A stretch of 64,000 bases of DNA. It comes from a candidate division WS6 bacterium OLB20 (GTDB lineage Bacteria; Patescibacteriota; Dojkabacteria; B142; OLB20). The notes beneath the pieces are model-generated. The model saw only the letters and a program-made list of their open reading frames with translations, searched no databases and was not told the DNA's origin. Made by a program: the position numbers and the translations under genes. Below are positions 1,982 through 34,375 of this stretch, in pieces. Each line of letters begins with the position of its first letter. Within the stretch, counting starts at the first letter, position 1. The DNA lies in the NCBI GenBank assembly GCA_001567355.1, contig JYNZ01000003.1:402263-466262 (forward strand), read 5' to 3'.

Positions 1982-2713
1982 ATGTGCTATATTGTATATA
2001 GTAGGTATATACAGATGCTCGAATACAATAACAATCCAGGGCGCGTCGACAACCGTCATCCGGACTACGATACAGTTTTTGCGCAGTGGATCGACTCGTT
2101 CACACAACTCCCTGAACGGGATGCTAATCCGCACTATCAGGCCGTTCACGCTGCAGTAGGACCCACACTGCACAGATGGATAGACCATCTGAGCAGACGC
2201 TTTGCAGCGTTTCCGGAGCTTCAGCAGAATATTGAACCCGAAGAGCGTATGGTGCTGCACGAGGCGGTCGCTGAAACCCTTACGATGCTCGGCGTCGAGG
2301 CCCACCAGATCCCGGAGTTTGTCATACTTACCTATGACGAAGAGATCTTCGGTAAAAAGCCAGGAGATGCTGCAATGATGATCGGCGGTGACAGGAACAA
2401 CTGCTCATGGATCATGCAGTGGGAAAAACTTTACAAATACTGTGATGATATCGCGGCAGCGAGAAGCAGCGGTGGCTGGCACAGGTATGTTCTTGCCGTG
2501 CAGCAGCTTTTGACTTCAGTTGGCCATGAGGCCATGCATGTCCACGACACATACTATAATCAGCACCGCATCGAAGGGGCATACATCGCCAATACTCCTG
2601 GCAACCAGTATCATGGAGCATATGGCGAATACGAACCGCAGGCGTTTGGAATGCAGTATGCCTGGCTGAAGGCTGCTGAACTTGCTGACCGGTTCTGCCC
2701 CAGACAGTACTAA
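1982..2713 (+). CDS. Hypothetical protein with an HExxH motif (VGHEAMHVHD). It may be a Zn-metallopeptidase-like protein. The true start may be the Met at 2015.
   Basis: 243-aa ORF in an otherwise gene-free interval. The HEAMH motif was seen directly. No other domain was recognised. Confidence 0.45.
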   Translation: MCYIVYSRYIQMLEYNNNPGRVDNRHPDYDTVFAQWIDSFTQLPERDANPHYQAVHAAVGPTLHRWIDHLSRRFAAFPELQQNIEPEERMVLHEAVAETLTMLGVEAHQIPEFVILTYDEEIFGKKPGDAAMMIGGDRNNCSWIMQWEKLYKYCDDIAAARSSGGWHRYVLAVQQLLTSVGHEAMHVHDTYYNQHRIEGAYIANTPGNQYHGAYGEYEPQAFGMQYAWLKAAELADRFCPRQY

Positions 2714-2880
2714 CCGCTAATACTGTTTAATGGGACGGCTCAGCTGATCTCGACTGATCCCAGCATAGCGACACCCTTTATTGTCAGGCGTTTTCCGGTT
2801 TTATCCGAACGCCTCCGTTTGTCGGATACCTCTCCAAGGACTGCAATCGCCTCATTAACAAGAGTCACATCCTCCGGAAG

Positions 2881-3399
2881 TCACAATTCGACTCCGCCAA
2901 AGACAGCGACAACTTCCAGTTCTGCATCGTCTGCAAACTGTGTATCCCGGAAATCGAGCTCTATACTGCCGAATACTGCAGTCAGACTGCCCTGCTTGAA
3001 GCTGTCAGAATCCACATGGCGCTTTGCACCGCCAAATACAACAACCTCAGACAATGCATCTGCTGATGCTTTATCCTTTGACGATCCCTGTCGGAGGAGG
3101 ATGCTCAGACCGATTGCGACCAGAAACAGCGGCCATAGAGTCCAGAGACTGAATGTGAACAGTCCCAGATTCCCTGCCAGAAGTGCAGCTCCAAAGAACA
3201 TAAACAGAACACCGGCAACCAGTGACCGGCGATGTACCAGAGCAATCCACAAGCCGAATGCAATCAGGAATACAGGCCACCACCGGATAACACTGCCCCA
3301 GACTTCGCCTGGAAGCAGATTATCTGCCAGAAACACTACACCAAGGAAGATGAACAATCCTCCCCAGATAAGGCGTGACGTTAAGTTTTGCATATGCAA
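2881..3399 (-). CDS. Membrane protein with a LiaF-like C-terminal domain and a DUF5668-like N-terminal TM region.
   Basis: Two N-terminal TM helices (WWPVFLIAFGLWIALV..). The C-terminal region has repeated VFGGxE/VFGSIEL strands typical of the LiaF/DUF2154 beta-rich domain. Confidence 0.5.
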   Translation of the reverse strand: MHMQNLTSRLIWGGLFIFLGVVFLADNLLPGEVWGSVIRWWPVFLIAFGLWIALVHRRSLVAGVLFMFFGAALLAGNLGLFTFSLWTLWPLFLVAIGLSILLRQGSSKDKASADALSEVVVFGGAKRHVDSDSFKQGSLTAVFGSIELDFRDTQFADDAELEVVAVFGGVEL

Positions 3400-3798: not shown

Positions 3799-4047
3799 GC
3801 AAATGCCCTAAAGACTATTAACCGTATTGTACTCCCGGAAGAATGTAAACGTAACCCCTCTCAGCCTTGCCAGGAACATTTGTGTAAACAGCAATGATTT
3901 CAGAAACATCCTGCTACTGCTCTGCTGGATAAAAAAATTCAGGACTATTTAAAGGGAACTCAGCTACAATCTGATTAGGGGGAACGGGGCGACAGCCCCG
4001 GGGTTAAAGATGCACCTGCACCTCATTAAAACGCATTAAAGCCAAAG

Positions 4048-4119
4048 TTGCGGGGAGAGGATTCGAACCTCTGACCTTCAGGTTATGAGCCTGACGAGCT
4101 GCCACTGCTCCACCCCGCG
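4048..4119 (-). tRNA. Initiator tRNA-fMet, anticodon CAU.
   Basis: Reverse complement CGCGGGGTGGAGCAGTGGCAGCTCGTCAGGCTCATAACCTGAAGGTCAGAGGTTCGAATCCTCTCCCCGCAA is near-identical over acceptor, D and anticodon arms to E. coli tRNA-fMet. It carries the diagnostic C1:A72 mismatch. A 6-bp GC hairpin (GGGGC-GACA-GCCCC, 3998-4011) lies just 3'. Confidence 0.85.
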
Positions 4120-5728: not shown

Positions 5729-5801
5729 GGGCCAGTAGCTCAGTGGTTAGAGCGCCGTTCTTATAAAGCGGTGGTCGGTGGTTCAATTCCACTCTGGCCC
5801 A
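5729..5801 (+). tRNA. tRNA with anticodon UAU (tRNA-Ile reading AUA). No CCA is encoded.
   Basis: GGGCCAGTAGCTCAGTGGTTAGAGCGCCGTTCTTATAAAGCGGTGGTCGGTGGTTCAATTCCACTCTGGCCCA. Acceptor 7 bp is perfect; D-stem GCTC/GAGC; anticodon stem CCGTT/AGCGG with loop CTTATAA; T-loop TTCAATT. The only consistent 5+7+5 anticodon arm places TAT at positions 34-36. Confidence 0.7.
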
Positions 5802-21409: not shown

Positions 21410-23539
21410 GTGGCGACTCAAGAACTACGCACACAATTAAGCGCAACCCACCACTTCCCAGGTACAGCCGAAATTGTGCATTTTGATGAAGATGGTGGTT
21501 ACAGCTCTGAATTTACTCCCGTTAGAACTCTGCCAAGACCGAACGGTATGTCTATTATCAGGATCGCCGACAGTTACGGCGTGAACATGAACAGCATTGT
21601 CGTAGACAGTGCTGGCACACTGATCAGCGGTGAGCAGGAACTTGGAGGCAGGATCAGTGAAACGATGGCCGGACTTAGATCGCACGGAATCAGGCCGACT
21701 CTGACGATAGTAGACTCCAGCTCCCAGCCGGAACTGTTTTCAGAGGAACAACGGCCATACAAATCCCGTGTAATCATTCTGGAAGATGTTAAACAGACAC
21801 TGAGGTCATCCGAGCGCACGACTCTTGGGTTTGTGAGGGTCGACTATGATGAGAACGATGACATCGAGAATGTGTCATACACGATGTCCGTCAACCCCTA
21901 CCCTGTGTCTGCTGATTCTCCCGAGATCTTTAACAGGGTCAATACTGCACTCAGAGATATTACCGCGCGTGAGCTTCACCCGATGTTCCAGCGTGTCATA
22001 GAGGCAAACGCCAATGGCGAAATCCACCTGACTCAGGAAAAGATCACTATGCTGGAACAGTTGAGCACACTGCTGGGAGATGCAGAGACAATAGGTCTTA
22101 GTGCAGAAGAGCAGGATTTCCTCAATGATTTTGAAGGCCAGATTCTAAATGGAGCCTATGACAGAGTATTCCGTCAGGCCGTGACCGATACGCTTGTATC
22201 AGTTGGATTGACACAGGCTGTAGCAATGGCCGGTCCTGCAGCGAGCGTACTGATCGGTGCGATGACCGAACCTGAAATTGGCGCTGCGATTGCTGCTGCC
22301 AGCTATATTGGTGCACCGGTACCCTCATGGTTACGAATGATGTATCAGAGTAAGAAACTGACAGGAAAGTTTAACGACATCAAAACCGTTATCGGCAGCT
22401 TCACAGCAATGAATCTCGTCCCCGTGGTTGGACCGGCTGCTGCATTCCCTCTTAGCGTTAATAATCAGACCGACGGGAAGCTTGGCAGATTCCGGCACCT
22501 CCTTCGTAAACACCCTGCCCTGGCCGCAGAGATTACACGTAAAGAAAAAGTTATGGATCTGCTTCTTTTTGGTAGACCGGAAGGCACAAGAGCTACCGAG
22601 GCTGCGCATATTTATGAAATCGAGGATACTGAGGATTATGATCTTGTCGAACACATCTCTTTCAACGGGAACGCTGTCGGAGTTGATATCGTTACTCCAA
22701 AAAGCGAAAAAGCCAAACATGAGCTCGCGCGTTTTGTAGCTGAACAGCACATCAAACACAAGCTGAGCAAACCCGGCGACGAAAACATTATCAACGTTGG
22801 GACAGATGAAAACCCGATCTACGAAATTGCAGAAGACGAATGCTGTGAAGCAGACTGGGTTGTGGTGAGAGACAGCAAGACCGCCGAGATCGTCGTTGCC
22901 CACAAAATGTACCGCAGAAAAGACGGCAATCTGCTCCCGATGCAGCAGCATGCATCACACGAAGCGATAGAGCCGAATACCAAGATCACAGATATGACGG
23001 CCGAGGAACTGCTGAACTCATTTGACACAGAACTCGGATCGCTGGCATTTAACCTTCGTGCAATACAAAGGACTGGTTCCCAGACCGAATCCGGGTACAG
23101 AATGACACTTGCACTGCTCGCATGGCTGCGAGGCGTTCATCATTACATGACTGAGAATGATGTAAAGGAGTTTGGTGCAATCTTTACCCGCAGAGCTTTC
23201 AGCTATGTAAGCAGACTTGGCAGCCTGGGGATAGAATCCATGACTGAACCCTTCCATTACATGCCAGTGGATGTAGAGACACATACACAATCAGAGGTGA
23301 TCCGGTTAAACCTGAAATACTCTCAGGGTATTATGAAGCTGAAAAACAGAGCGATCCATGATTTTATCTTCAATGGCCTTACTAATCACGAACCGACAAG
23401 AAAGGCTATCTGGAGAGAGGTAATCAACAAAAACTTCCAGCCCAGTTACAGAGAAGGACTCCTTAAGTACGCAGGCAAGTCAATAATGCGTGCATATCTC
23501 AACATTCGTGCAGGAGCTATAGTCTCATTTAAACTGTAG
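21410..23539 (+). CDS. Large (709 aa) hypothetical soluble protein with a central Gly/Ala-rich hydrophobic segment. No recognisable domain.
   Basis: Long ORF with a GTG start, preceded by a 350-bp AT-rich non-coding region. No TM or signal peptide at the N-terminus. Internal segment GLTQAVAMAGPAASVLIGAMTEPEIGAAIAAASYIGAPVP. Confidence 0.5.
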   Translation: MATQELRTQLSATHHFPGTAEIVHFDEDGGYSSEFTPVRTLPRPNGMSIIRIADSYGVNMNSIVVDSAGTLISGEQELGGRISETMAGLRSHGIRPTLTIVDSSSQPELFSEEQRPYKSRVIILEDVKQTLRSSERTTLGFVRVDYDENDDIENVSYTMSVNPYPVSADSPEIFNRVNTALRDITARELHPMFQRVIEANANGEIHLTQEKITMLEQLSTLLGDAETIGLSAEEQDFLNDFEGQILNGAYDRVFRQAVTDTLVSVGLTQAVAMAGPAASVLIGAMTEPEIGAAIAAASYIGAPVPSWLRMMYQSKKLTGKFNDIKTVIGSFTAMNLVPVVGPAAAFPLSVNNQTDGKLGRFRHLLRKHPALAAEITRKEKVMDLLLFGRPEGTRATEAAHIYEIEDTEDYDLVEHISFNGNAVGVDIVTPKSEKAKHELARFVAEQHIKHKLSKPGDENIINVGTDENPIYEIAEDECCEADWVVVRDSKTAEIVVAHKMYRRKDGNLLPMQQHASHEAIEPNTKITDMTAEELLNSFDTELGSLAFNLRAIQRTGSQTESGYRMTLALLAWLRGVHHYMTENDVKEFGAIFTRRAFSYVSRLGSLGIESMTEPFHYMPVDVETHTQSEVIRLNLKYSQGIMKLKNRAIHDFIFNGLTNHEPTRKAIWREVINKNFQPSYREGLLKYAGKSIMRAYLNIRAGAIVSFKL

Positions 23540-23589: not shown

Positions 23590-25977
23590 ATGGCTCCACT
23601 CACCTTACTGTTCATCGTTGTTATTGTTTTCCAGTTCGGGCTGAACTATCTGATACTTGCAGGCGGCAACTACCGTAAACAGACCAATCTCTGGTTTGCA
23701 GGAATGAACACGTCTTTGATCGTCTGGATCCTTACGATCATTCTTGCGAACATTGACTTCAATTCCGAGTCGCTCAGTCTGTTTATCAGCAGGCTATCGT
23801 TCGCCAGTATCTTCACATTCACATTCTTTCTCTACTTTTTTGCAAAGACATTCTCTGCTGTACCGTTAAGAATACCCCGCGTTTTTCACTGGTACATGAT
23901 TGCATCAACACTGTTCTGGGCTGTTGTAATCTTCATTACTGATCAGGTTGTCCGCGGGGTCATCCGGGTGGAAGATCGCTTTGATGTCGACAGAAGCGGA
24001 GATCTCTATATCCATTTTCTGGTATTCACACTCCTGCATCTTGGTGTATCCATTGTTGTGCTTGGTCTGAAAACGCTGAAAGCAGACGCAAAAGAACGGC
24101 CAAAGCTTAAGATTGTACTGTTCGGACTTGTCCTGATCTCCATTATTGTAGTGATCACCAATGCAATAATTCCGCTTCTGACGGGCACGACCGAGTCTTC
24201 AAGCTATGGTCCGCTGGCAATAATCATCTGGCTGTCAGTGATCTTCTATAACATTCATCAGAACCAGTTCCTGGATACACGGCTTATCCTTGGACGCTTC
24301 TTTTACTATGCAATTCTCGGTGTACTGGCATATGTCTCGTTTTATGTGTTCTCATTTATCACACTGGTACTGTTTGGGAGCATTTACGAACCGGGCAGCT
24401 ATATTATCGGCATTTTTAATGCTGCAGTCTTTGTGCTGGGATTTGATGCAGCACGAAAGTTCTTCCAGGAACAGATTACACTCCGTCTTATTAACCCTGG
24501 ATTCAATCCCCTCGAAATTATTGATCAGTTTAATGGAGAGATCAGCACAACATTGGATTTAAAGGATGTTGCGGATCAGACCATGAGCGTTCTCGCCAAG
24601 ACTATCCGTCCTGACCGACTGGGAGTAATTGTCTCACCAAATGACAGCAATAATAACTGGCGGTCATTTGAACACAAGAGTAAAGAGGCCTCTGTTTTCC
24701 AGGTGCAGGACTTCAAAGTCTTGAATGGTTTCTGGGATGGCACTAATACCAGACCGATAGTGTTTGATGACCTTGAATATGATACACAGGGGCTTTTCAG
24801 AACCATGCCGAACATGATCGAACAGGTACGGACACTTATGCAGAAGTACGAACTCAAGGTCATCTACCCCCTTATTGAGAACGAAGAGGTTTCGGGAATG
24901 CTGCTCCTGGGCAGAAAGGAGGCTGACAGTCCATATTCAACACAGGATCTGAAGTTTCTGGAAAGTCTTGCGAGTATAACCGGCCTTGCCATCAACCGCG
25001 CCCTCCTCTATCAGGAGACCCAGCAGTTCAATATAGAGCTGCAGAAGCAGGTGGAGAAAGCCACTAAAGAGCTTAAAGTTAAAAACAGCTCACTTGAGGA
25101 CGCGCTGACTAAACTGGAAGAGATCCGCCGTCAGGAGCGTGACATGATTGACGTTATGGGTCATGAGCTGCGTACCCCGATATCCATCGTGCGTAATGCC
25201 CTGCTTGTGATGGACAGCAAGTACAAAAAACATGGAGAGATTCCTAAAGAGACGCTTGAGAAGTATCTTGAGATGGCGATCGAATCCGTCAGGCGTGAGT
25301 TGACACTGATCGAGACGCTGCTGTCTGCCACCAAGGTCGAGGGAAACAGGATCCAGCTGCATCTCACAAAGATTGACATGAAGGATGTTATTGACGACTC
25401 CCTCGAAGCACTGAGGCGTGATGCACAGGAAAAAGGACTGACAATCAATTATGATCCTCCACAGCACGAAATTATTGCCTACGCAGACCGTGTCAGGACA
25501 CAGGAGGTCATGGACAATTTCCTCAGCAACGCCATCAAATACACGCCTCGCGGTCAGATTACGATCAGTGTCGGTGAAGACGACGGCTTTGCATGGATCT
25601 CGGTCAAGGATTCCGGAGTCGGGATTTCCAGGGAGGACATCAAGAAGCTTGGTAAGAAGTTCTTCAGAGCTCAGCCGCACTACTCTGCAGAAGATGGCGC
25701 ACGCCCCAGCGGGACCGGTCTGGGTCTGTATGTGACATTTGAGCTGATCGATGTAATGAACGGCAAGCGGGATATTCAGAGCGAGATTGGCAAGGGCTCG
25801 ACATTCAGCTTCTATCTGCCTTCTTATACGGAGCAGGAGGATACACAGATTGACCAGACATTTATGACTAATCCGGCACTGGCAAAGGAAACGATAGACA
25901 ATATTGCGGGTAAGAAAGTGGAACGTTCCGACCGTTATACTGTGGTCAGCATCGAACCCGACCCGGCTCAGAGTTAA
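23590..25977 (+). CDS. Sensor histidine kinase: 7-TM N-terminal sensor, GAF-like domain, HisKA and HATPase_c.
   Basis: ~7 N-terminal TM helices; H-box MGHELRTPISIVRNAL; N/G boxes LSNAIKYT, DSGVGI, GTGLGL. No response regulator is adjacent. Confidence 0.85.
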   Translation: MAPLTLLFIVVIVFQFGLNYLILAGGNYRKQTNLWFAGMNTSLIVWILTIILANIDFNSESLSLFISRLSFASIFTFTFFLYFFAKTFSAVPLRIPRVFHWYMIASTLFWAVVIFITDQVVRGVIRVEDRFDVDRSGDLYIHFLVFTLLHLGVSIVVLGLKTLKADAKERPKLKIVLFGLVLISIIVVITNAIIPLLTGTTESSSYGPLAIIIWLSVIFYNIHQNQFLDTRLILGRFFYYAILGVLAYVSFYVFSFITLVLFGSIYEPGSYIIGIFNAAVFVLGFDAARKFFQEQITLRLINPGFNPLEIIDQFNGEISTTLDLKDVADQTMSVLAKTIRPDRLGVIVSPNDSNNNWRSFEHKSKEASVFQVQDFKVLNGFWDGTNTRPIVFDDLEYDTQGLFRTMPNMIEQVRTLMQKYELKVIYPLIENEEVSGMLLLGRKEADSPYSTQDLKFLESLASITGLAINRALLYQETQQFNIELQKQVEKATKELKVKNSSLEDALTKLEEIRRQERDMIDVMGHELRTPISIVRNALLVMDSKYKKHGEIPKETLEKYLEMAIESVRRELTLIETLLSATKVEGNRIQLHLTKIDMKDVIDDSLEALRRDAQEKGLTINYDPPQHEIIAYADRVRTQEVMDNFLSNAIKYTPRGQITISVGEDDGFAWISVKDSGVGISREDIKKLGKKFFRAQPHYSAEDGARPSGTGLGLYVTFELIDVMNGKRDIQSEIGKGSTFSFYLPSYTEQEDTQIDQTFMTNPALAKETIDNIAGKKVERSDRYTVVSIEPDPAQS

Positions 25978-26283: not shown

Positions 26284-26736
26284 TCAGCGGCAGTCTGTTA
26301 CTGTAGCCAGCGGCATTCTCACTGCGGCAGTATAGTCACGAATTATCTCAGCTACAGCAGGTCTGATCGGCATGGCAAGGACAGCGGCACCGTCAAGCCA
26401 GACGTTTTCGCTGACGTCCGCATCAGTCTCCGCAGTCTCACCGGTCCCGGTCAGCTCCATCTCGTAAGCTATTCCAAATGCTCCGCCGATAAGATAAAAA
26501 CCGATAATTGAAACCGGTTTTGCCGGGTATCCTGTTTCTTCCAGCATCTCCCGTACCGCAGCATCTTCGGGATGTTCACCCGGGTTGCAGAAACCGGTCG
26601 GGAAACTCAGCATTCCTGCTTTTTTGCCGATCGAGGGATTATCTTCAAGCTCTTTGATAAGGAGAAAGCCTTTTTCGGTCTTTAAGACTGCCGAGATGCC
26701 GAAAACGGTTGGCCGCTGCATATCCCTGATGGCCAT
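26284..26736 (-). CDS. NUDIX hydrolase.
   Basis: Nudix box GFCNPGEHPEDAAVREMLEETGY (GX5EX7REUXEEXGU). Its start overlaps the stop of the upstream polyprenyl synthase gene by 1 nt. Confidence 0.8.
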   Translation of the reverse strand: MAIRDMQRPTVFGISAVLKTEKGFLLIKELEDNPSIGKKAGMLSFPTGFCNPGEHPEDAAVREMLEETGYPAKPVSIIGFYLIGGAFGIAYEMELTGTGETAETDADVSENVWLDGAAVLAMPIRPAVAEIIRDYTAAVRMPLATVTDCR

Positions 26737-27632
26737 CAGAATTCGCGGTTGATCATGTAATCAGCGATTCCGTCCAGAAACGCCCTGCCTTCGCCATTCC
26801 AGTCAGGCATCGTGGCCAGCGCCTCTTTAGCCTTGTATACAAAATCGCGTGCGGTATTTTTGGAGTACTCCAGCGAGCCGGTTTCCGCAATAATCTCCCG
26901 GACTTTATCGGCATCCGCTTGCGTCACGTTGGGGTTGCCAAGTGCCTGCGTAACAGTATGAATTTGAGCCTTAGAGCCGTTTTCAAGCGCCTTGATGATC
27001 AGAAGTGTGTGTTTACCCTCCCGCAGATCAGAAATATTAGGCTTGCCGAGTTTTTCCTCCTGACCGTACATTCCCAGAATGTCATCCTGGATCTGGAACG
27101 CAATTCCGGCAGGGATTGCATATCCGCTCAGAATCTGTACGTCCTCGTCACTTGCGCCTGCAAGCACCGCGCCGATTGAAATTGGCGTTTCGTATGTATA
27201 AACAGCAGTTTTATAGTGATGGACCTTAAAGACATCATCCTGCGTCACCTCTTTTTTTACAGAACTCACAATATCCAGCATCTGTCCAAATCCGACAGTA
27301 ACAATCTGCCGATGCAGCTGCGACAATGCTCTGACCTTCAGCTCGGGTGCAAAATCCGAATCAGTCAGGATCTGGCAGGCATAATGACAGGCGATATCCC
27401 CCAGATTGACAGCCATGCTCTCGCCAAAATGTGCCGGGTCCTGCATTCCATACTTTTTTTTATGAACGTCCTCGTAAATTTTATGGATCGTAGCGCCTCC
27501 CCGTCGTTTGTCATCCTGATCCATGACATCATCATGGATGAGAAGGTATGACTGGATAAGTTCGGTAAACAGCGATGCATGGAGCGCCTCATCGGGGTCA
27601 GTACCCCCCATCATCATGTACGTGTAGTACAT
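26736..27632 (-). CDS. Trans-polyprenyl diphosphate synthase (FPP/GGPP synthase family), C-terminal ~300 aa. Both DDxxD motifs are present.
   Basis: First aspartate-rich motif LLIHDDVMD and second FQIQDDILG. The N-terminal ~60 aa are encoded in the adjacent 27598..27894 ORF, in another frame. Confidence 0.8.
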   Translation of the reverse strand: MYYTYMMMGGTDPDEALHASLFTELIQSYLLIHDDVMDQDDKRRGGATIHKIYEDVHKKKYGMQDPAHFGESMAVNLGDIACHYACQILTDSDFAPELKVRALSQLHRQIVTVGFGQMLDIVSSVKKEVTQDDVFKVHHYKTAVYTYETPISIGAVLAGASDEDVQILSGYAIPAGIAFQIQDDILGMYGQEEKLGKPNISDLREGKHTLLIIKALENGSKAQIHTVTQALGNPNVTQADADKVREIIAETGSLEYSKNTARDFVYKAKEALATMPDWNGEGRAFLDGIADYMINREF

Positions 27633-27894
27633 AAGTGCTGCTCGAAGGCGTTTTTGCTTTGCGCAGGGAATACTCCCGCAGATATTTTACAGCTGCGTAT
27701 GACTCCGGCGAGATGGTTTTTGCATGAGGAGCCACTGTCTCAAAGTACTCTTCCAGCAGAGGTTCTATCTTTGTCCGAAACTCCTCAAGTTTTGTTTTTG
27801 CGTCCATGCAGCCCGAAAAAGCCTTTCTCTTACGGTCAAAAACTACTATGTGTACGATTGTAAACCAGTTTCCTTTGCTATTCAAGCACATCAC
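27598..27894 (-). CDS. N-terminal fragment of the same polyprenyl synthase, displaced by a frameshift at the T5 run 27651-27655.
   Basis: Encodes MDAKTKLEEFRTKIEPLLEEYF...YLREYSLRKAK. Removing one A from the minus-strand A5 run gives ...SLRKAKRLRAALMYYTYMMMGG. That restores the conserved GKRLR motif and runs in frame into the main ORF. Confidence 0.7.
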   Translation of the reverse strand: MMCLNSKGNWFTIVHIVVFDRKRKAFSGCMDAKTKLEEFRTKIEPLLEEYFETVAPHAKTISPESYAAVKYLREYSLRKAKTPSSSTYVLHVHDDGGY

Positions 27895-27987
27895 AATGGC
27901 GCCATGAAACGGCAGAACGTGTTTTCAATCCGGAGTGATTACAAGTAATATGTGGTGTACACGGGTTGAACAACGAGTACTATCGAA

Positions 27988-29427
27988 ATGATGAATATTG
28001 AAAACGAACTGGACGCAGCGAGGAAGAACGCCCTCCGCTACATAATCACCACGCAGAAAAAAGACGGCTCATGGAGCGGTCCTTATAGTTCGCGTCTAAG
28101 AGAGACTGTGCTCGCTAACCTTATAGCAAAAATTGCTGGTTGGAAAGAGATCTCGCAAGCTACAGAGACGTGGATTAATGAGCATCCTGAGCCATTCGGG
28201 GTTTCAGAACTTGAACTGGCTTTAAATACTGCGCTTTTGGATATTCTTCGCCGGAAGTCTCTATTGATACCACATGAGCAATTCATGCAACGTGATCTGG
28301 TAAGGAAGTATTTGATGATTTACGCAATAGGAATCCTGTTAAATATCAACTTCCCTACCGATACACAGCAGCTGGTTGCAAAAATACTTACAAGGATTGA
28401 AGAGGAATTGAAAGCGAATACTACACTTAAGCCATGGGCACGTTCAGAGTTTCTCAGTTTCCTAATAATCTGCTGTGACAGAGACGACTTGATTGAAGAA
28501 CTACTTAAACTTGAGGGAGACAGTGGAAGCTGGTTTAACAACACGGCTACAACTGCGATAGCACTGCTTTCCATATCGAGGCACCAACGTATTCAGTTTA
28601 ACTCGTACTATCAATTCTTTAAAGAAAATATGCAGCAGGACGGCGGTTACTCGTATGCACCTATTGAGAACTGGGATACAGGACTTACCCTTCAAATTCT
28701 TGCCGAACAACCTGATCAGGATGATATTATTTCTAAAGCGATTAGTTATCTGGAACTAAGTCAGAATCCAGATGGCGGATGGGGTTTTACTAAAGCCACA
28801 CCATCAGAATCAGATACAACAAGTATTGTTGTAAGAGCCTTGCAGATCCTTGGTGAAGATAGACTTAAGTCAAAGGCGTTAAATTTCTTGAAGTCAGTTC
28901 AATTTACTACTGGTGAATACAAAGGCTTGTGGCCAGTATGGGATCAAAGCGAAATGCCGAGTATCGAGGTGGTAGCTCATGTAGCAGAAGTATTTAGCCA
29001 CGAGGGATTTGACGTTTCCCATGCAGTATCGTGGCTCACTAATAAAGTTTTAACTGACTCCTGGATGCCAGTCTGGGGTAGAAGTTCTGCTTACGCTGCT
29101 TCGGCAATTCTAGCAACTATTGGAAATAAACGAGCAAGATCGATAATTTGCAAACACATTCTGAGCACACAGCTTAAAGATGGAGGATGGCCCAGTGTAC
29201 ACGGCGAATCAAGCAATGCGAGTGCAACAGGTAATGCCTTAGCCGCTCTTAGACTACTGGACAGCCCCGAACAGAAAATCAAGAGATCTGGTATGGAGTA
29301 CCTGATCAGAAACCAGCTGGAAAACGGAACCTGGCCAGAAGTCAGAGAGGTTGTAGGCCCACGGCCATACTCATACAGCGATCAGATGTCGACACACTAC
29401 TTTGCATTGAATCCCTTACTATTATGA
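27988..29427 (+). CDS. Prenyltransferase/squalene-oxidase (QW) repeat protein; class-II terpene-cyclase-like alpha/alpha barrel.
   Basis: 479 aa with at least 5 QW-type repeats (QKKDGSWSG, QQDGGYSY, QNPDGGWGF, QLKDGGWPS, QLENGTWPE) and a DRDD tetrapeptide. It sits divergent from the polyprenyl synthase. Local GC is lower than the window average. Confidence 0.6.
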   Translation: MMNIENELDAARKNALRYIITTQKKDGSWSGPYSSRLRETVLANLIAKIAGWKEISQATETWINEHPEPFGVSELELALNTALLDILRRKSLLIPHEQFMQRDLVRKYLMIYAIGILLNINFPTDTQQLVAKILTRIEEELKANTTLKPWARSEFLSFLIICCDRDDLIEELLKLEGDSGSWFNNTATTAIALLSISRHQRIQFNSYYQFFKENMQQDGGYSYAPIENWDTGLTLQILAEQPDQDDIISKAISYLELSQNPDGGWGFTKATPSESDTTSIVVRALQILGEDRLKSKALNFLKSVQFTTGEYKGLWPVWDQSEMPSIEVVAHVAEVFSHEGFDVSHAVSWLTNKVLTDSWMPVWGRSSAYAASAILATIGNKRARSIICKHILSTQLKDGGWPSVHGESSNASATGNALAALRLLDSPEQKIKRSGMEYLIRNQLENGTWPEVREVVGPRPYSYSDQMSTHYFALNPLLL

Positions 29428-30152
29428 AATTAGTGCGACTGCTTATAAACTCGGTATTAAAGCATCCATTTGCTGCGTTGAAACTTATTTCTCTCAGACC
29501 ATCCGAAGTATCACTCAAACGCTTCCTGTCTGTTTTTGTTACAGCGTCAATAGCCGCACCCAAAAACAGCTTCTACTCCAAAGATATAGTTAGGCTTTGC
29601 CAACTAACACTAATACCTTTCATCATTGATAGCAAACTCGATGAGTCCAACTATTTTCGATTTGGAGTTGATCTAGCAATTGAAAAACTTCAGAAGGATC
29701 TAGAAGTTCGCATTAATGACTTGAAGCTCAGCCAAGAGGAGACTCAAGTTGTCAACAAAGAGATAAGAAACTTAATCGCACATGACTTTTTAGCTAATGA
29801 ATCAGATACTATATCTTCATATCTAATGCACTCAACTTATACAATCGGATTAATATTTGTTACCAGGTCTTTAACGTCTGTTCATCAAGATGAATACGAT
29901 TTAGGCTTTCTAATCGAGTGTTCTAAACTTATTAGATACCTTAGTGATCGCGCAACTATCGAGAAAGATAAATCTGAGAAGAGGAATAATCTATCCAACT
30001 ACATTAATAAACAAGAAATCAATCATAGAATTTATACTTCTTCGAAAAAAATCGAGCAATACAAGATAACTTCGGTGACAGAGCAATTTCTGTACAACAT
30101 TGCAAAATTGAGCCTCATTTTCTATAAGAACAAAGACTTTGAGTACGTATGA
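29424..30152 (+). CDS. Hypothetical all-alpha protein (242 aa), encoded in AT-rich DNA. Its start overlaps the upstream stop by 4 nt.
   Basis: ORF with an ATGA overlap to the QW-repeat gene. No TM. I could not confirm canonical DDxxD or NSE/DTE terpene synthase motifs. Confidence 0.45.
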   Translation: MKLVRLLINSVLKHPFAALKLISLRPSEVSLKRFLSVFVTASIAAPKNSFYSKDIVRLCQLTLIPFIIDSKLDESNYFRFGVDLAIEKLQKDLEVRINDLKLSQEETQVVNKEIRNLIAHDFLANESDTISSYLMHSTYTIGLIFVTRSLTSVHQDEYDLGFLIECSKLIRYLSDRATIEKDKSEKRNNLSNYINKQEINHRIYTSSKKIEQYKITSVTEQFLYNIAKLSLIFYKNKDFEYV

Positions 30153-32140
30153 TATTTGGAAATAGAAAAAAGAAGCCAGCAGGTACACCTGCCCGTAAAC
30201 TGCTTGATGCTAATCTATTAGCTAGTCAGCTTGATGCTGTTCAGGCCGTCTCAAGTGTTCTTATCAAGCAAACAGACCTTGACGAGACCCTTTCTGTCAT
30301 AGTCAATCAGCTCGGTGAGAAGCTCCACTATATAAACCCTGTTATCTATCTCTTAAATGACTCACGTTCCTCTATCTCGGTTCGGAAGGTGAATGTCCCC
30401 AAAGCTATTGTCGCTCTAACAAATAGAATAGTTGGCAAGTCAGTATATGATGTCAACTTTGATCTAGATTCAAACAATACCCTTGCGAAAGCAATTCGCA
30501 GTAGCGAGATTCAAATATCCGATGACTTCTCAGAGGTTTTTCATCCCTATCTGAATAGTTTTGCTGCAAAGACGATCCAAACAGCATTAAATATAAAACG
30601 AGTTATCATTTCTCCAATTAAGGTCGATGATGTGCCGATCGGATGTCTATCAATCGGATCACGAAGTGATGAGGTTGAATCGTCAGAAATAACCACCTTA
30701 CAAACATTTTCTGCACAAATTAGTATTGCGATATATAATTCTCAACAGTTTGAAAATATAGCCCAACAGAAGAACAACCTCGAATCCCTCTTCAACCTCA
30801 CCAGCTCTATCAGTCAGACACTTGACCCGAACAAGGTTACGCAGACTGCTGTCAACACGATCCCGATGAACGATGAGCTGGTAGGGATAACTGTATCGAC
30901 ATATGATCCGGATACAAAACTTATTGTCCCGCAGGCTACCACCCAGGGCGACCTTGCCAGACGCGCTGAAGAGGTGATCGGTTCATTCAAACAGTATGCA
31001 CTTGATCTGTCCAACCCTGATCACCGCTCCAACATGATAGTGCAGACAATCAAAGACGGCACACCGAAGGAAAGCGACCACCTGTCTTCAGTTGTCAGTC
31101 CTGTCATGCCAAAGGCTCTGGTTGACGGACTCAACCGGCTGCTCAAGATCAACAAGGTCATCGCCTACCCCCTGCAATCCCGTGGCGAGCCTATAGGCGT
31201 CATTGTGTTTTACATGCGGCTCAAGGAAGAGAACGCCTTTACACCTGAAAAACAGCAGCTGTTTGAGACATATGCATCCCAGATCAGCATTGCACTTGAA
31301 AACGCACTTCTGTACACACAATCAGAAGAGATCACACAGAACCTGCGCGAAGCCAGACGTCGCGAACGTGATATGGTCGATGTCATGGGACACGAGCTGC
31401 GAACACCGATTTCTATTGTGCGCAATGCCCTGCTGACCCTCGAAAAAGACTACCAGGAGGATAACAAGGTCGAAGATCAGGAGAAGCTGGGTAAATACCT
31501 ATCCATGGCAATCGAGTCCACCAAACGAGAGGTCCGGCTGATTGAGACCATGCTTTCTGCCACTAAAGTTGAGGGGAACAAGATTCAGCTTGATTTCGGC
31601 AAGGTTGATATGCTGGATGTGATAGATGATGCTATTGAGGCATTAAAGCCACTTGCAGATGATAAGAATCTGCCTATTGTCTACGCCCGGCCACAGGTCG
31701 ACTATTTTGCGTACGCTGATCGAGTGCGTACACAGGAGATCATGGATAATATTCTCAGCAATGGCATCAAGTATACAGCCAGCGGTGAGGTGCGAATAAG
31801 TATCCGCAAAGACAAAGGGAAGATCTGGGTTGATGTTTCCGATACAGGTATAGGATTACACGAGGAAGACAAGGCACAGCTTGGTAAAAAGTTCTTCCGG
31901 GCTAAAGCGATGTTCAGCGATAAACCCGGCGTGGTTCAGCCAAGCGGCACAGGTCTGGGACTGTTTGTCACCTTCAACCTGATAGAGCTTATGAACGGTG
32001 ATAAGACCATTAAGAGCGAACCCGGCAATGGCTCAGTCTTCAGCTTTGGCCTGCCGGAGTTTACCGGTCAGAAGGAGCAGCATCTGCAGGAGGCGATGCT
32101 TGGCAAAACTTCAAAGCCAGCTGACGCCCGATCTGACTGA
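30149..32140 (+). CDS. Cytoplasmic sensor histidine kinase with tandem GAF domains; paralogue of the 23590..25977 kinase core.
   Basis: No TM. Two GAF-like regions. H-box MGHELRTPISIVRNAL. HATPase boxes LSNGIKYT, DTGIGL, GTGLGL. The kinase core is ~65% identical in protein to the other HK. No adjacent response regulator. Confidence 0.85.
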   Translation: MIFGNRKKKPAGTPARKLLDANLLASQLDAVQAVSSVLIKQTDLDETLSVIVNQLGEKLHYINPVIYLLNDSRSSISVRKVNVPKAIVALTNRIVGKSVYDVNFDLDSNNTLAKAIRSSEIQISDDFSEVFHPYLNSFAAKTIQTALNIKRVIISPIKVDDVPIGCLSIGSRSDEVESSEITTLQTFSAQISIAIYNSQQFENIAQQKNNLESLFNLTSSISQTLDPNKVTQTAVNTIPMNDELVGITVSTYDPDTKLIVPQATTQGDLARRAEEVIGSFKQYALDLSNPDHRSNMIVQTIKDGTPKESDHLSSVVSPVMPKALVDGLNRLLKINKVIAYPLQSRGEPIGVIVFYMRLKEENAFTPEKQQLFETYASQISIALENALLYTQSEEITQNLREARRRERDMVDVMGHELRTPISIVRNALLTLEKDYQEDNKVEDQEKLGKYLSMAIESTKREVRLIETMLSATKVEGNKIQLDFGKVDMLDVIDDAIEALKPLADDKNLPIVYARPQVDYFAYADRVRTQEIMDNILSNGIKYTASGEVRISIRKDKGKIWVDVSDTGIGLHEEDKAQLGKKFFRAKAMFSDKPGVVQPSGTGLGLFVTFNLIELMNGDKTIKSEPGNGSVFSFGLPEFTGQKEQHLQEAMLGKTSKPADARSD

Positions 32141-32837
32141 CAAATTCCTCCATCAACGGCATCTCAGCATCAAAGGTTCTTTTCTCTAGATGGGTAAAGT
32201 AAACAGCTCCGTAAACCTTTGCCTCGTATAGAATTGGTAACCCTGCGGAGTAACGCGACTTACTGAATTTCTGCATTAGTTCTGTAAAATTTCTACTCAT
32301 CGCTCCTACAGTGAAATTGTAGTTATAATCCGAATAGTATTTCTTTTTTTCTTTTACAACCCTGACTAAATAGTTATCGGGATGTTCAGTGAGCGACACG
32401 GACAAACTTGTTAGGTTTTTTCCCAACCTTCCGATCGTGATCAATGCCAGATTAGTTCTGCTGAAAGCACTGACTCGTAATCTGTCTCCATCCACAAGCA
32501 GCAATACTACAATAGAAAATCCCAGCACTTTTGCCACCTCATCAACGGCGTATTGTAGTAGCTCATCCGTATTCAGTATTCCTTCCAGATTATTTATTAT
32601 ATTCAACAGCTTTGAGGGCGTATCAAACACAATCCCGAATAGATCACCAAGCTCTAAATCTGACAAGCTGAGATGATCAGCGATTTTGAGTATAGTCTCC
32701 TTCGTAGGATTATTTACACCGTTCTCTATCCGCGACAGACTCCCCGGCGACGCGCCAATCGCCATCTCAAGGTCAAGCTGGCTTACACCCGCACGTTTGC
32801 GGTAGGTCCTGATTTTATCGCCGACTGATTCGCTCAT
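32061..32837 (-). CDS. XRE-family HTH transcription regulator fused to a GAF-like sensor domain.
   Basis: N-terminal YRKRAGVSQLDLEMAIGASPGSLSRIENG is a Cro/C1-type HTH. The C-terminal ~180 aa are GAF-like. The 3' end overlaps the convergent HK 3' end by ~80 nt, so one of the two ends may be shorter. Confidence 0.65.
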   Translation of the reverse strand: MSESVGDKIRTYRKRAGVSQLDLEMAIGASPGSLSRIENGVNNPTKETILKIADHLSLSDLELGDLFGIVFDTPSKLLNIINNLEGILNTDELLQYAVDEVAKVLGFSIVVLLLVDGDRLRVSAFSRTNLALITIGRLGKNLTSLSVSLTEHPDNYLVRVVKEKKKYYSDYNYNFTVGAMSRNFTELMQKFSKSRYSAGLPILYEAKVYGAVYFTHLEKRTFDAEMPLMEEFVSQIGRQLALKFCQASPPADAAPSDR

Positions 32838-33618
32838 GGTTAAGTTTGAATAACTCCTCCTTTGAAAGTAATTTTAGTAATCCCCTGATCATATCTGCGA
32901 TCTGCTTCATCATTTTCTCAAGTGCTCTGGCTTCGTTCTGATTAAACGATGCGAGCGATTCCTTCCGTGCGATAGTGAGTGCCCCATACACAGTATTCTC
33001 ATCAGCAATCGGTAACGCAATAAAGGATTTAAGCCCGATTGTGCTTGCAATCAGTTTGCACTGCATCTTCGTAAGCGGTGGCGAAGCAAAATCTGAAAGT
33101 ACTTCACCAGTAAACATCCTGTTTTCATCAACACATTGTTTGGTATATGTATCAAGGTTATCCAGACTCTGTGGGTTGAACGACAATTGATCCAGAATGT
33201 ATTTAAAAGCAAAATCCACTGCCGGACCGGTCGAGAAGTATCGCAGGTGAAGTGCATTCAGATCCTGATCAAAATAGGAGAATGCTATACCTTTGTATCC
33301 AAGCTTGTTTTGAATCTCAGTCAACTTCTCTCCGAGAGCGTAATCCACGACTTTACCCGAAAGCATTGCCCGTATGCCCTGCAGTGAGTCTTCAAACTGT
33401 TCGATGGAGAGATCTATATCAAAGAGTCCGGCTGTTTCAACCGCGTCAAGCTTCAGTACATCTGCAATATTGAGAAGCGTCTCTTTGGTCGGGTTAACAA
33501 TACCGTTCTCAATCCGCGACAGACTCCCCGGCGACGCGCCAATCGCCATCTCAAGGTCAAGCTGGCTTACACCCGCACGTTTGCGGTAATCACGGATAAT
33601 GCTGCCCAGATCATGCAT
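32815..33618 (-). CDS. XRE-family HTH plus GAF-like regulator; tandem paralogue of the previous gene.
   Basis: The first ~30 codons are identical at the DNA level to the neighbouring paralogue (about 85-bp repeat at 32720-32805 and 33500-33585). The C-terminal sensor domain has diverged. Confidence 0.65.
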   Translation of the reverse strand: MHDLGSIIRDYRKRAGVSQLDLEMAIGASPGSLSRIENGIVNPTKETLLNIADVLKLDAVETAGLFDIDLSIEQFEDSLQGIRAMLSGKVVDYALGEKLTEIQNKLGYKGIAFSYFDQDLNALHLRYFSTGPAVDFAFKYILDQLSFNPQSLDNLDTYTKQCVDENRMFTGEVLSDFASPPLTKMQCKLIASTIGLKSFIALPIADENTVYGALTIARKESLASFNQNEARALEKMMKQIADMIRGLLKLLSKEELFKLNHERISRR

Positions 33619-33694: not shown

Positions 33695-34375
33695 TTATTC
33701 TGCTACAGTGTTAACCACCTTCTCAACACATGCTGATGTTCTACAGTCGCATCGTATTGTATAACACTGAGGTTGGCCGGGATCAGGGCGCGTTGCAGGA
33801 CAAACCTGATATTCCTCGATATCGTCCGACGCTCCTGGATTGGAGCAGTTATTAGTACAGACAAATCGATCGTTCTCATTGCACGCGAGTACCTGCCCTA
33901 CATAGGAACCACCTGTACAGACCTGCGGGAAGAAGAACGTAAATCCGGGATCACGAAGGTTTTCATAGCAGCTTGCATCCTCGGCAATCAGCCCTTGCAT
34001 CAATGTTGCTGATATCGGGTATGCAAGAAAGTACAGGAGCAGACCGATAACCCACTGCCCTGCACGCTTTTTAGCGATCTCAACCTTGCTCTGGTCGCCG
34101 GCACTTGTCAGGTAGATTCCACCGATTACAACCAGCAGCACCATAAAGACAATGCCTCCAAACGCCCAGGCGGCATATATTACCCGGGTGACAAGATACT
34201 GCAGTTCACGGATTGTGGGTGGTTCGCAGGGTTCACTGCTCTCGAGGGAGCACGGCTCAGAGACCTGAGCCGATGCCGGCTCTGCTGAGATGAACAACGG
34301 CAGCACAACAACTATCAGTACAAGCAGTACCGGGTATGCACGCTTAATAAGTGTTGCAAACCGTTGCACAGTCAT
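33695..34375 (-). CDS. Pilin-like protein 1: signal peptide, two-helix hydrophobic hairpin (TrbC/VirB2-like topology), Cys-rich C-terminal ectodomain (12 Cys).
   Basis: Signal peptide ends ASAQ. Hairpin VIYAAWAFGGIVFMVLLVVIGGIYL - TSAGDQSKVEIAKKRAG - QWVIGLLLYFLAYPISA. The Cys-rich tail follows. Confidence 0.55.
   Translation of the reverse strand: MTVQRFATLIKRAYPVLLVLIVVVLPLFISAEPASAQVSEPCSLESSEPCEPPTIRELQYLVTRVIYAAWAFGGIVFMVLLVVIGGIYLTSAGDQSKVEIAKKRAGQWVIGLLLYFLAYPISATLMQGLIAEDASCYENLRDPGFTFFFPQVCTGGSYVGQVLACNENDRFVCTNNCSNPGASDDIEEYQVCPATRPDPGQPQCYTIRCDCRTSACVEKVVNTVAE

Follow-up and report, generated by a model that had tools for sequence, protein, structure and literature searches.

The locus described here lies in a 64,000-nucleotide stretch of DNA (hereafter the window) taken from contig JYNZ01000003.1 of the candidate division WS6 bacterium OLB20, a Dojkabacterium. 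The OLB genomes, of 0.9-1.4 Mb, originate from an anammox reactor and were sequenced with IonTorrent technology (PMC4821891). At the core of the locus, the gene for a class II terpene cyclase homolog of 479 amino acids (aa) is followed by that of a 242-aa protein predicted to adopt the class I terpene synthase fold, which we call the mini-synthase, and this one by the gene of a soluble sensor histidine kinase with two GAF domains. The cyclase and mini-synthase genes share a 4-nucleotide (nt) ATGA overlap, as had been described for this all-alpha open reading frame (ORF) in an earlier note made from the sequence alone, and the mini-synthase and kinase genes also overlap by 4 nt. On the opposite strand, a short-chain isoprenyl diphosphate synthase gene, broken into two frames, and a NUDIX hydrolase gene lie on the cyclase side, and two genes for regulators combining an XRE-type helix-turn-helix (HTH) with a GAF domain lie on the kinase side (Table 1). 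In GenBank, the proteins around the module are named NudE, a 298-aa farnesyl diphosphate synthase, 'Squalene--hopene cyclase' (KXK26778, 100% identical to the 479-aa protein), a hypothetical protein, and PhoR. The earlier note had confined the module to positions 26284-30152; the real unit is larger, reaching about 33.6 kb with the kinase and the XRE-GAF regulators. We consider it fairly probable that this operon would make a cyclic terpenoid through the joint action of the class II cyclase and the mini-synthase, as judged from sequence comparisons and structural models.

The 479-aa protein exceeds the gathering cut-offs of three Pfam models (SQHop_cyclase_C, 57.1 against 26.1 bits; Prenyltrans, 52.6 against 26.5; SQHop_cyclase_N, 52.3 against 26.2) and contains six QxxDG(x)W-type repeats, where at least five had been claimed before. 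Its AlphaFold2 (AF2) model has a predicted local distance difference test score (pLDDT) of 89.3 and a predicted template modelling score (pTM) of 0.88. A Foldseek search of this model against the PDB returns SsDMS first (E 1.4e-15), followed by squalene-hopene cyclase (SHC), Rv3377c, the ent-copalyl diphosphate (ent-CPP) synthase PtmT2, and Tpn2, with protein farnesyltransferase beta and other alpha/alpha barrels ranked far below the class II cyclases. The protein is thus predicted to be a class II terpene cyclase homolog with the two-domain beta-gamma architecture, and both the Pfam scores and the structural matches to bacterial beta-gamma enzymes bear out the class II cyclase reading given in the earlier note.

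The position of the general acid is a different matter. In a phmmer alignment to SsDMS, the residues E274-S-D276-T face the catalytic DVDD, and in a multiple alignment with DxDD-bearing SHC-like relatives, ESDTT occupies the DxDD column. Across the clade, with eight relatives read at this position, the motif is SE[SAT]DT[TS], where the central Asp is invariant and the first Asp is replaced by Glu in all close relatives; the distant homologs P0004 and L007 read DNDTT and DTDTT, respectively. DxDTT is an accepted functional variant of DxDD with an essential middle Asp, as described for Rv3377c (PMC5024094) and for AstC and AsDMS (PMC9128629), and the D333N exchange of the middle Asp in AsDMS abolished cyclisation (PMC9128629). 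The tetrapeptide DRDD, which had been likened to the DxDD acid, does not align with it: it lies in the N-terminal half of the protein, where the nearest homologs read DSTE and DVSQ. Since the alignment puts ESDTT at the catalytic position and DRDD is not conserved, the latter was rejected as the catalytic motif and appears to be a chance tetrapeptide. The earlier note had also contemplated a non-catalytic family with DRDD outside the active site; DRDD is indeed outside that position, whereas the fold matches class II cyclases.

The identity of the second enzyme is less evident from its sequence. A word-index homolog search with the 242-aa protein retrieved only the protein itself, and a four-member alignment of the family gave no match in the JGI metagenomes; when 1.84 billion representatives were searched exhaustively with phmmer, 11 clusters emerged, with members of 239-256 aa plus one 121-aa fragment. 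The AF2 model, built from four sequences (pLDDT 86, pTM 0.85), has as best Foldseek matches the class I pimarane-type diterpene synthases 7e4o and 7e4m (E 2e-3 to 5e-3, TMq 0.65), followed by the ent-kaurene synthase BjKS (4w4r) and by many class I sesquiterpene and polyprenyl synthases, with TMq values up to 0.66. Weak matches to Terpene_syn_C_2 or Terpene_synth_C (E <= 1) appear in eight of the 11 family members, the best with an E of 1.5e-6; the two scores seen, those of the L001 and L002 members, are under the Pfam gathering score. These matches, together with the homologous position of a canonical synthase in the related locus L003, argue for the class I fold that the earlier note had proposed to look for by structure prediction.

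The residues that are invariant in the 11 members include D69 and D73, where helix 52-73 reaches its C-terminal end, as well as R171, D175, K181, D182 and E185, where helix 160-184 ends. According to MAFFT and hhalign, the D69/D73 region faces the DDLVD of the canonical L003 synthase and the S174-E185 stretch faces its NDLRSYRKELAEG. The latter stretch, (S/N)Dxx(T/S)xxKDxxE, is aligned with NDLRSYRKELAE, the window protein having Ser at the first position and Asp, not Glu, at the last one. Because these invariant columns face the canonical motifs, the family appears to keep DxxxD and (S/N)Dxx(T/S)xxKDxxE versions of the class I metal-binding motifs. The mini-synthase is about 85 residues shorter than its canonical homolog, and the C-terminal RY pair was not found in the family, whose C-terminus reads FYK..KDFE.

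Eleven related loci, all from metagenome assemblies, came from examining genomic context and from a search that used the kinase as its query; ten of them are distinct, L090 and L091 being the same (L001, L002, L084-L088 and L090-L092; GC content 0.31-0.43). The order cyclase, mini-synthase and GAF kinase ortholog is kept in every related locus, with a cyclase of 480-506 aa where complete, and the stop of the synthase gene overlaps the start of the kinase gene by 1 or 4 nt in the eight loci examined. All three kinase-side matches in the JGI metagenomes carry the cyclase pair. The isoprenyl diphosphate synthase gene adjoins the module in the window, L001, L002, L085, L087 and L090. Identity between the window proteins and their orthologs is 45-60% for the isoprenyl diphosphate synthase, 43-47% for the kinase, 34-42% for the cyclase and 28-32% for the mini-synthase. 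When the GTDB representative genomes were scanned with the cyclase trio, no close relative emerged; the best matches were 24-26% identical. These loci are most likely a conserved terpenoid-cyclase operon of a small, low-GC uncultivated group, in which the window organism is a Dojkabacterium and the others come from metagenome assemblies. Outside this group, L003 (GC content 0.68) encodes the DNDTT cyclase P0004, whose gene has a 4-nt overlap with that of a canonical 331-aa terpene synthase (1.4e-26) and has a P450 gene adjoining, and represents the nearest ordinary version of the cyclase/synthase pair.

Two further arrangements were observed among the cyclase homologs. L090/L091 carry, at 2566-3001, a degraded second copy of the mini-synthase gene in fragments, placed between the cyclase gene and that of an intact 245-aa synthase, which suggests a tandem duplication followed by decay. 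Separately, in L004 (4657-7500), L005 (4702-7500), L006 (4651-7509) and L008, from Thermodesulfobacteriota and other metagenome-assembled genomes, a class II hydroxymethylglutaryl-CoA (HMG-CoA) reductase is fused to a 480-aa cyclase homolog with 25-26% identity to the window cyclase and the motif D-N-E-S-T, with Glu at the central Asp. Downstream of these fused genes lie a UbiA prenyltransferase gene (L004) and a gene that, recognised by eye, starts like a type-2 isopentenyl diphosphate (IPP) isomerase.

Table 1. Features of the terpenoid-cyclase module and its surroundings, in window positions
Feature	Position	Strand	Basis
NUDIX hydrolase, 150 aa	26284-26736	-	Pfam NUDIX 1.5e-14; Nudix box
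Short-chain trans-isoprenyl diphosphate synthase, two frames, 356 aa when repaired	26736-27807	-	Pfam polyprenyl_synt 1.7e-50
SARM-like DDILG of isoprenyl diphosphate synthase	27072-27086	-	motif
FARM DDVMD of isoprenyl diphosphate synthase	27519-27533	-	motif
Homopolymer, A5 on coding strand / T5 on + strand, site of frame break	27651-27655	-	ortholog comparison
Lowest-GC tract of the window	27900-31000	.	GC 0.414, z = -6.2
Class II terpene cyclase homolog, beta-gamma didomain, 479 aa	27988-29427	+	Pfam, AF2, Foldseek, phmmer
DRDD tetrapeptide, residues 164-167 of cyclase	28477-28488	+	not conserved, off catalytic position
E274-S-D276-T-T278, DxDD/DxDTT general-acid position	28807-28821	+	alignment
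Predicted mini class I terpene-synthase-fold protein, 242 aa	29424-30152	+	AF2, Foldseek, family Pfam matches, hhalign
D69-S-K-L-D73, in place of DDxxD	29628-29642	+	family alignment
S174-D-R-A-T-I-E-K-D182-K-S-E185, NSE/DTE-like motif	29943-29978	+	family alignment
Soluble GAF-GAF-HisKA-HATPase sensor histidine kinase, 663 aa	30149-32140	+	Pfam
XRE-HTH + GAF one-component regulator	32061-32837	-	Pfam HTH_3 + GAF
XRE-HTH + GAF one-component regulator	32815-33618	-	Pfam HTH_3 + GAF

The divergent isoprenyl diphosphate synthase was described in the earlier note as a polyprenyl synthase with both DDxxD motifs. The domain call stands, although the gene is split: the initial ~58 codons (MDAKTKLEEF...) lie in another frame, giving parts of 58 and 298 aa, and the frame is broken at a run of five A (A5). 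With one A of this run removed, the gene encodes a 356-aa protein whose alignment to the L001 ortholog is free of gaps, at 60% identity, and the two halves have no further lesions. As for the motifs, the first Asp-rich one (FARM), DDVMD, is the only one of DDxxD type, the second (SARM-like) reading DDILG; the nearest PDB relatives are the geranylgeranyl diphosphate (GGPP) synthases 3lk5, 5jfq and 1wy0, and the best of them, 3lk5 from Corynebacterium glutamicum, carries DDLLG where this synthase has DDILG. The FARM is of the archaeal type DDVMDQDDKRRG, without the bacterial two-residue insertion, with a Tyr five residues upstream, and the best NCBIfam matches are short-chain families, all under the cut-off. 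Chain-length rules are established for trans-isoprenyl diphosphate synthases, and from these rules and the best matches to GGPP synthases the product is most likely C20 or C15.

The frame break does not seem to come from the sequencing of this genome only. The Logan assembly of a much later run, SRR29904086 (L089), shows no difference over 6,897 bp (100% identity), the A5 run included, and the Logan assembly of SRR29904083 encodes the same 298-aa product. A pure IonTorrent artefact is weakened as an explanation by the identical sequence in SRR29904086 and, since this later assembly shows the same A5 run, the frameshift is probably real.

The start codon of the NUDIX gene and the stop codon of the synthase gene have one base in common, so that the translational coupling of both genes, as well as their Pfam assignments, was correctly read in the earlier note. 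Its inclusion of the NUDIX protein in the isoprenoid module did not hold, as this gene is adjacent only in the window and none is found beside the synthase in L001 or L085. The protein has a canonical Nudix box at residues 48-69 (26530-26595) and reached no specific NCBIfam family; a role as isoprenoid-pathway enzyme or type-1 IPP isomerase was discarded given the lack of any IDI family match, the hydrolase Nudix box, and the lack of conservation.

On the regulatory side, the operonic kinase has no hydrophobic segment, and the two XRE-GAF regulators, of 258 and 267 aa, are encoded in tandem; such genes adjoin the module in the window, L001, L085 and L088. The 5' HTH-coding ends of the two genes (32676-32804 and 33460-33588) share 88% DNA identity over 129 nt and are recent paralogs or gene-converted copies. 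A second GAF histidine kinase gene is found on the other side of the module (23590-25977); its product has a multi-pass membrane N-terminus, and its C-terminal half and the soluble operonic kinase share 47% identity. L001 also has a HisKA_7TM kinase close to the module. A recent conversion event between the two histidine kinase genes of the window was considered as the cause of the GC step at 31.3 kb and rejected, their DNA identity being only 64.5%.

Regarding the remaining surroundings, a promoter and terminator scan gave nothing above the shuffled expectation. An Rfam scan of the window detected only three tRNAs, all distant from the module: a tRNA-Ile with a TAT anticodon (5729-5801) and two tRNA-Met with CAT (1785-1860 and 4047-4119). 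A 226-aa ORF at 33695-34375 on the minus strand has weak, sub-threshold matches to the type IV secretion system (T4SS) pilin and TrbC/VirB2 pilin families, and a 709-aa ORF at 21410-23539, upstream of the membrane kinase gene, has no Pfam match.

The AT-rich tract singled out in the earlier note lies outside the normal variance: the GC content of 27901-31000 is 0.414, against 0.502 +/- 0.014 elsewhere in non-overlapping 3.1-kb windows (z = -6.2), and this segment shows the lowest GC content and the largest tetranucleotide deviation of the whole 64 kb. By gene, the GC content is 0.351 for the mini-synthase, 0.438 for the cyclase and 0.47-0.53 for the flanking genes, with GC and third-position GC (GC3) both lowest in the window for the cyclase and mini-synthase genes. 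The horizontal acquisition proposed to explain it fared worse, for the gene order, including kinase and regulators, recurs in relatives, and no near-identical donor was found for the module proteins. A mobile element was rejected, since no tRNA, integrase or flanking repeat was found around the tract. Because all sampled relatives are low-GC, the composition is compatible with both an import from a low-GC lineage and an old, unameliorated resident block.

Several known systems resemble this one. Rv3377c, the halimadienyl/tuberculosinyl diphosphate synthase of Mycobacterium tuberculosis, is likewise a class II diterpene cyclase with beta-gamma architecture, about 500 aa long, and its motif is DxDTT, not DxDD (PMC5024094), sharing the TT with the ExDTT of the window cyclase. 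Its structure (6vpt) matches the window cyclase with an E of 1e-9 and a TM-score (TM) of 0.61, at an identity of only about 15%. Rv3377c is also followed by a second enzyme, its operon partner Rv3378c, which removes the diphosphate; however, Rv3378c has a cis-prenyltransferase-like fold, in contrast to the predicted class I alpha fold of the window partner. Among the beta-gamma proteins of solved structure, SsDMS, the drimenyl diphosphate synthase of Streptomyces showdoensis (7xq4 and related structures), comes closest in both sequence and fold, with a phmmer E of 1.6e-11 over residues 179-471, the above Foldseek score, and a catalytic Asp that aligns with D276, differing in its DVDD motif and sharing about 20% identity. 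The HAD-like drimenol synthases AsDMS and AstC also have DxDTT with an essential middle Asp (PMC9128629), and the AsDMS beta domain is among the fold matches; contrary to the window pair, with its beta-gamma protein and separate alpha-fold protein, they consist of a HAD domain, which dephosphorylates, fused to a single beta domain.

The bacterial class II/class I pairs, such as ent-CPP synthase with BjKS, or CPP synthases with the pimaradiene synthases Sat1646 and Stt4548, likewise show adjacent genes for a GGPP-type synthase, a class II and a class I enzyme. BjKS and the pimarane-type synthases (7e4o, 7e4m) have 263-289 resolved residues, compared with 239-256 aa in the window family and 331 aa in the L003 homolog. 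The window class I family has DxxxD and (S/N)Dxx(T/S)xxKD where the class I enzymes of the bacterial pairs have DDxxD and NDxxSxxxE, the window protein falls below every curated threshold, and the operon runs on into a GAF histidine kinase. Thus, what appears to be new within the known class II/class I pair is a Glu-substituted DxDTT, a mini class I partner with degenerate motifs from a very rare, unmodelled family, and an invariant operonic kinase.

Taking homology, folds, motif conservation and synteny as the observed basis, we infer the enzyme activities, chain length, product and regulatory link of the following scheme. The divergent isoprenyl diphosphate synthase would supply a linear prenyl diphosphate, probably GGPP (C20) and possibly farnesyl diphosphate (FPP); mevalonate-pathway genes have been reported from Dojkabacteria (PMC6107057), which makes a supply of the precursor plausible. 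The beta-gamma cyclase would then protonate the terminal double bond, with Asp276 of E-S-D-T-T as the acid, in what would be a Glu-for-Asp variant of the DxDTT of Rv3377c and the drimenol synthases, to give a bicyclic prenyl diphosphate. The mini-synthase would bind Mg2+ through D69/D73 and S174-D175...T178...D182...E185 and ionise this bicyclic diphosphate to the final cyclic terpene or terpene alcohol. The best structural matches of the cyclase are class II enzymes acting on prenyl diphosphates, and the top ones of the mini-synthase are class I diterpene synthases taking class II products. The operon continues into the soluble GAF-GAF kinase and is flanked by the XRE-GAF regulators, which would tie production to dedicated signalling; this conserved read-through and these flanking regulators suggest that terpenoid production and sensing are linked. 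One may go further and picture a self-contained terpenoid signalling unit of ultra-small bacteria of the candidate phyla radiation (CPR), where the GAF domains of the kinase and the XRE-GAF regulators have as their cognate ligand a cyclic (di)terpenoid made by the cyclase pair, and the fast-diverging mini-synthase makes a lineage-specific signal. The terpenoid as GAF ligand is a speculation, and we give the whole picture little credence.

A number of observations weigh against terpenoid synthesis by this operon. The class II motif has Glu for the first Asp and Thr for the last one. The mini-synthase alone returns nothing significant in Pfam, NCBIfam or the PDB sequences by single-sequence or profile searches, and its Foldseek support for a class I fold is modest (E 1.8e-3, TM 0.65). 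In its family, the place of the second Asp of DDxxD is taken by S, N, H, Y, K or R, the first NSE position is Ser, not Asn, in most members, and the diphosphate-sensor Arg was not seen, the Arg of 'LRSIAG' in the L003 synthase facing Tyr, Ser and similar residues. Compared with L084, the mini-synthase is only 32% identical, against 74% for the kinase N-terminus and 60% for the cyclase C-terminus; it therefore appears to evolve unusually fast, diverging much faster than its flanks. Lastly, the isoprenyl diphosphate synthase is frameshifted in the window genome, and this lesion recurs in a later, separate run; thus, precursor supply from this gene may be impaired.

Such features could be read in other ways. 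The cyclase folds might have been kept without terpenoid synthesis, binding or modifying an isoprenoid lipid from a host or the environment as the input of GAF/XRE-GAF signalling, an explanation that would account for the tight and universal coupling of the pair to the soluble GAF-GAF kinase and the XRE-GAF regulators, for the degenerate metal-binding and acid motifs, and for an isoprenyl diphosphate synthase gene that is frameshifted in the window and, in L088, missing from the 6.5 kb that lie upstream of the module. It would also suit CPR bacteria, thought to depend on other organisms and to have limited biosynthesis (PMC4821891). We nevertheless hold it to be unlikely, because the catalytic residues are invariant (the central Asp, both DxxxD ends, and D..T..KD..E), an isoprenyl diphosphate synthase gene is adjacent in six loci, and the closest non-CPR relative is an ordinary class II/class I/P450 biosynthetic cluster. 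Decay of the module in the window genome, with the frameshift and AT-rich drift as marks of a non-functional remnant, is also quite improbable in our view: both cyclase ORFs are full length and keep all family-invariant residues, and the halves of the isoprenyl synthase have no other lesion and are 60% identical to an intact ortholog. Even though the identical frameshift in an independent assembly, the lowest GC and GC3 of the window at the cyclase and synthase genes, and a cyclase more divergent than any other of its group (34-42% identity, the others sharing 41-49%) speak for decay, the source genome consists of IonTorrent data, prone to homopolymer indels.

The two remaining alternatives concern the identity of the proteins. 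The pair might be a protein-prenyltransferase-like heterodimer, with an alpha/alpha-barrel beta subunit and a helical alpha subunit, given the Pfam Prenyltrans match (6e-14), the farnesyltransferase beta chains among the fold matches, and the all-helical small partner. This is very improbable, as those beta chains reach a TM of only 0.38-0.40 and an E of ~1e-4, against E values of 1e-15 for class II cyclases, the 479-aa protein has two barrels, and the matches of the small protein are to class I terpene synthases, the 50 listed including no prenyltransferase alpha subunit. That the 479-aa protein is an SHC making hopanoids, as its GenBank/UniRef name and its SQHop_cyclase_N and SQHop_cyclase_C matches would imply, has next to nothing in its favour once the curated models are consulted: the protein falls far short of all NCBIfam SHC and oxidosqualene cyclase models (TIGR01507, 45.6 against 431.1 bits; TIGR01787, 73.5 against 322.7). 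We have rejected this assignment, since the protein has 479 aa against about 630, its motif is ESDTT (ExDTT) and not DxDD, and the structures nearest to it are those of di- and sesquiterpene cyclases; the ORFs examined included no identified squalene synthase, and one survey did not find SHC in CPR bacteria (PMC7306690).

A cyclic terpenoid made by the class II cyclase and the mini-synthase remains the interpretation we prefer. CPR bacteria, or Patescibacteria, are regarded as metabolically minimal, and our literature search found no described terpene synthase or cyclase from CPR, Patescibacteria or Dojkabacteria, although bulk counts of 'terpene' biosynthetic gene clusters for Patescibacteria may exist. 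Should the pair prove active, terpenoid specialised metabolism would reach into the CPR radiation, the ExDTT acid motif would join the class II repertoire, and the class I synthases would gain an undescribed family of very small proteins (about 245 aa; 11 clusters among 1.84 billion representatives), useful as a minimal scaffold. The invariant operonic link to a GAF kinase would, moreover, offer a concrete, testable case of a terpenoid tied to bacterial signal transduction.

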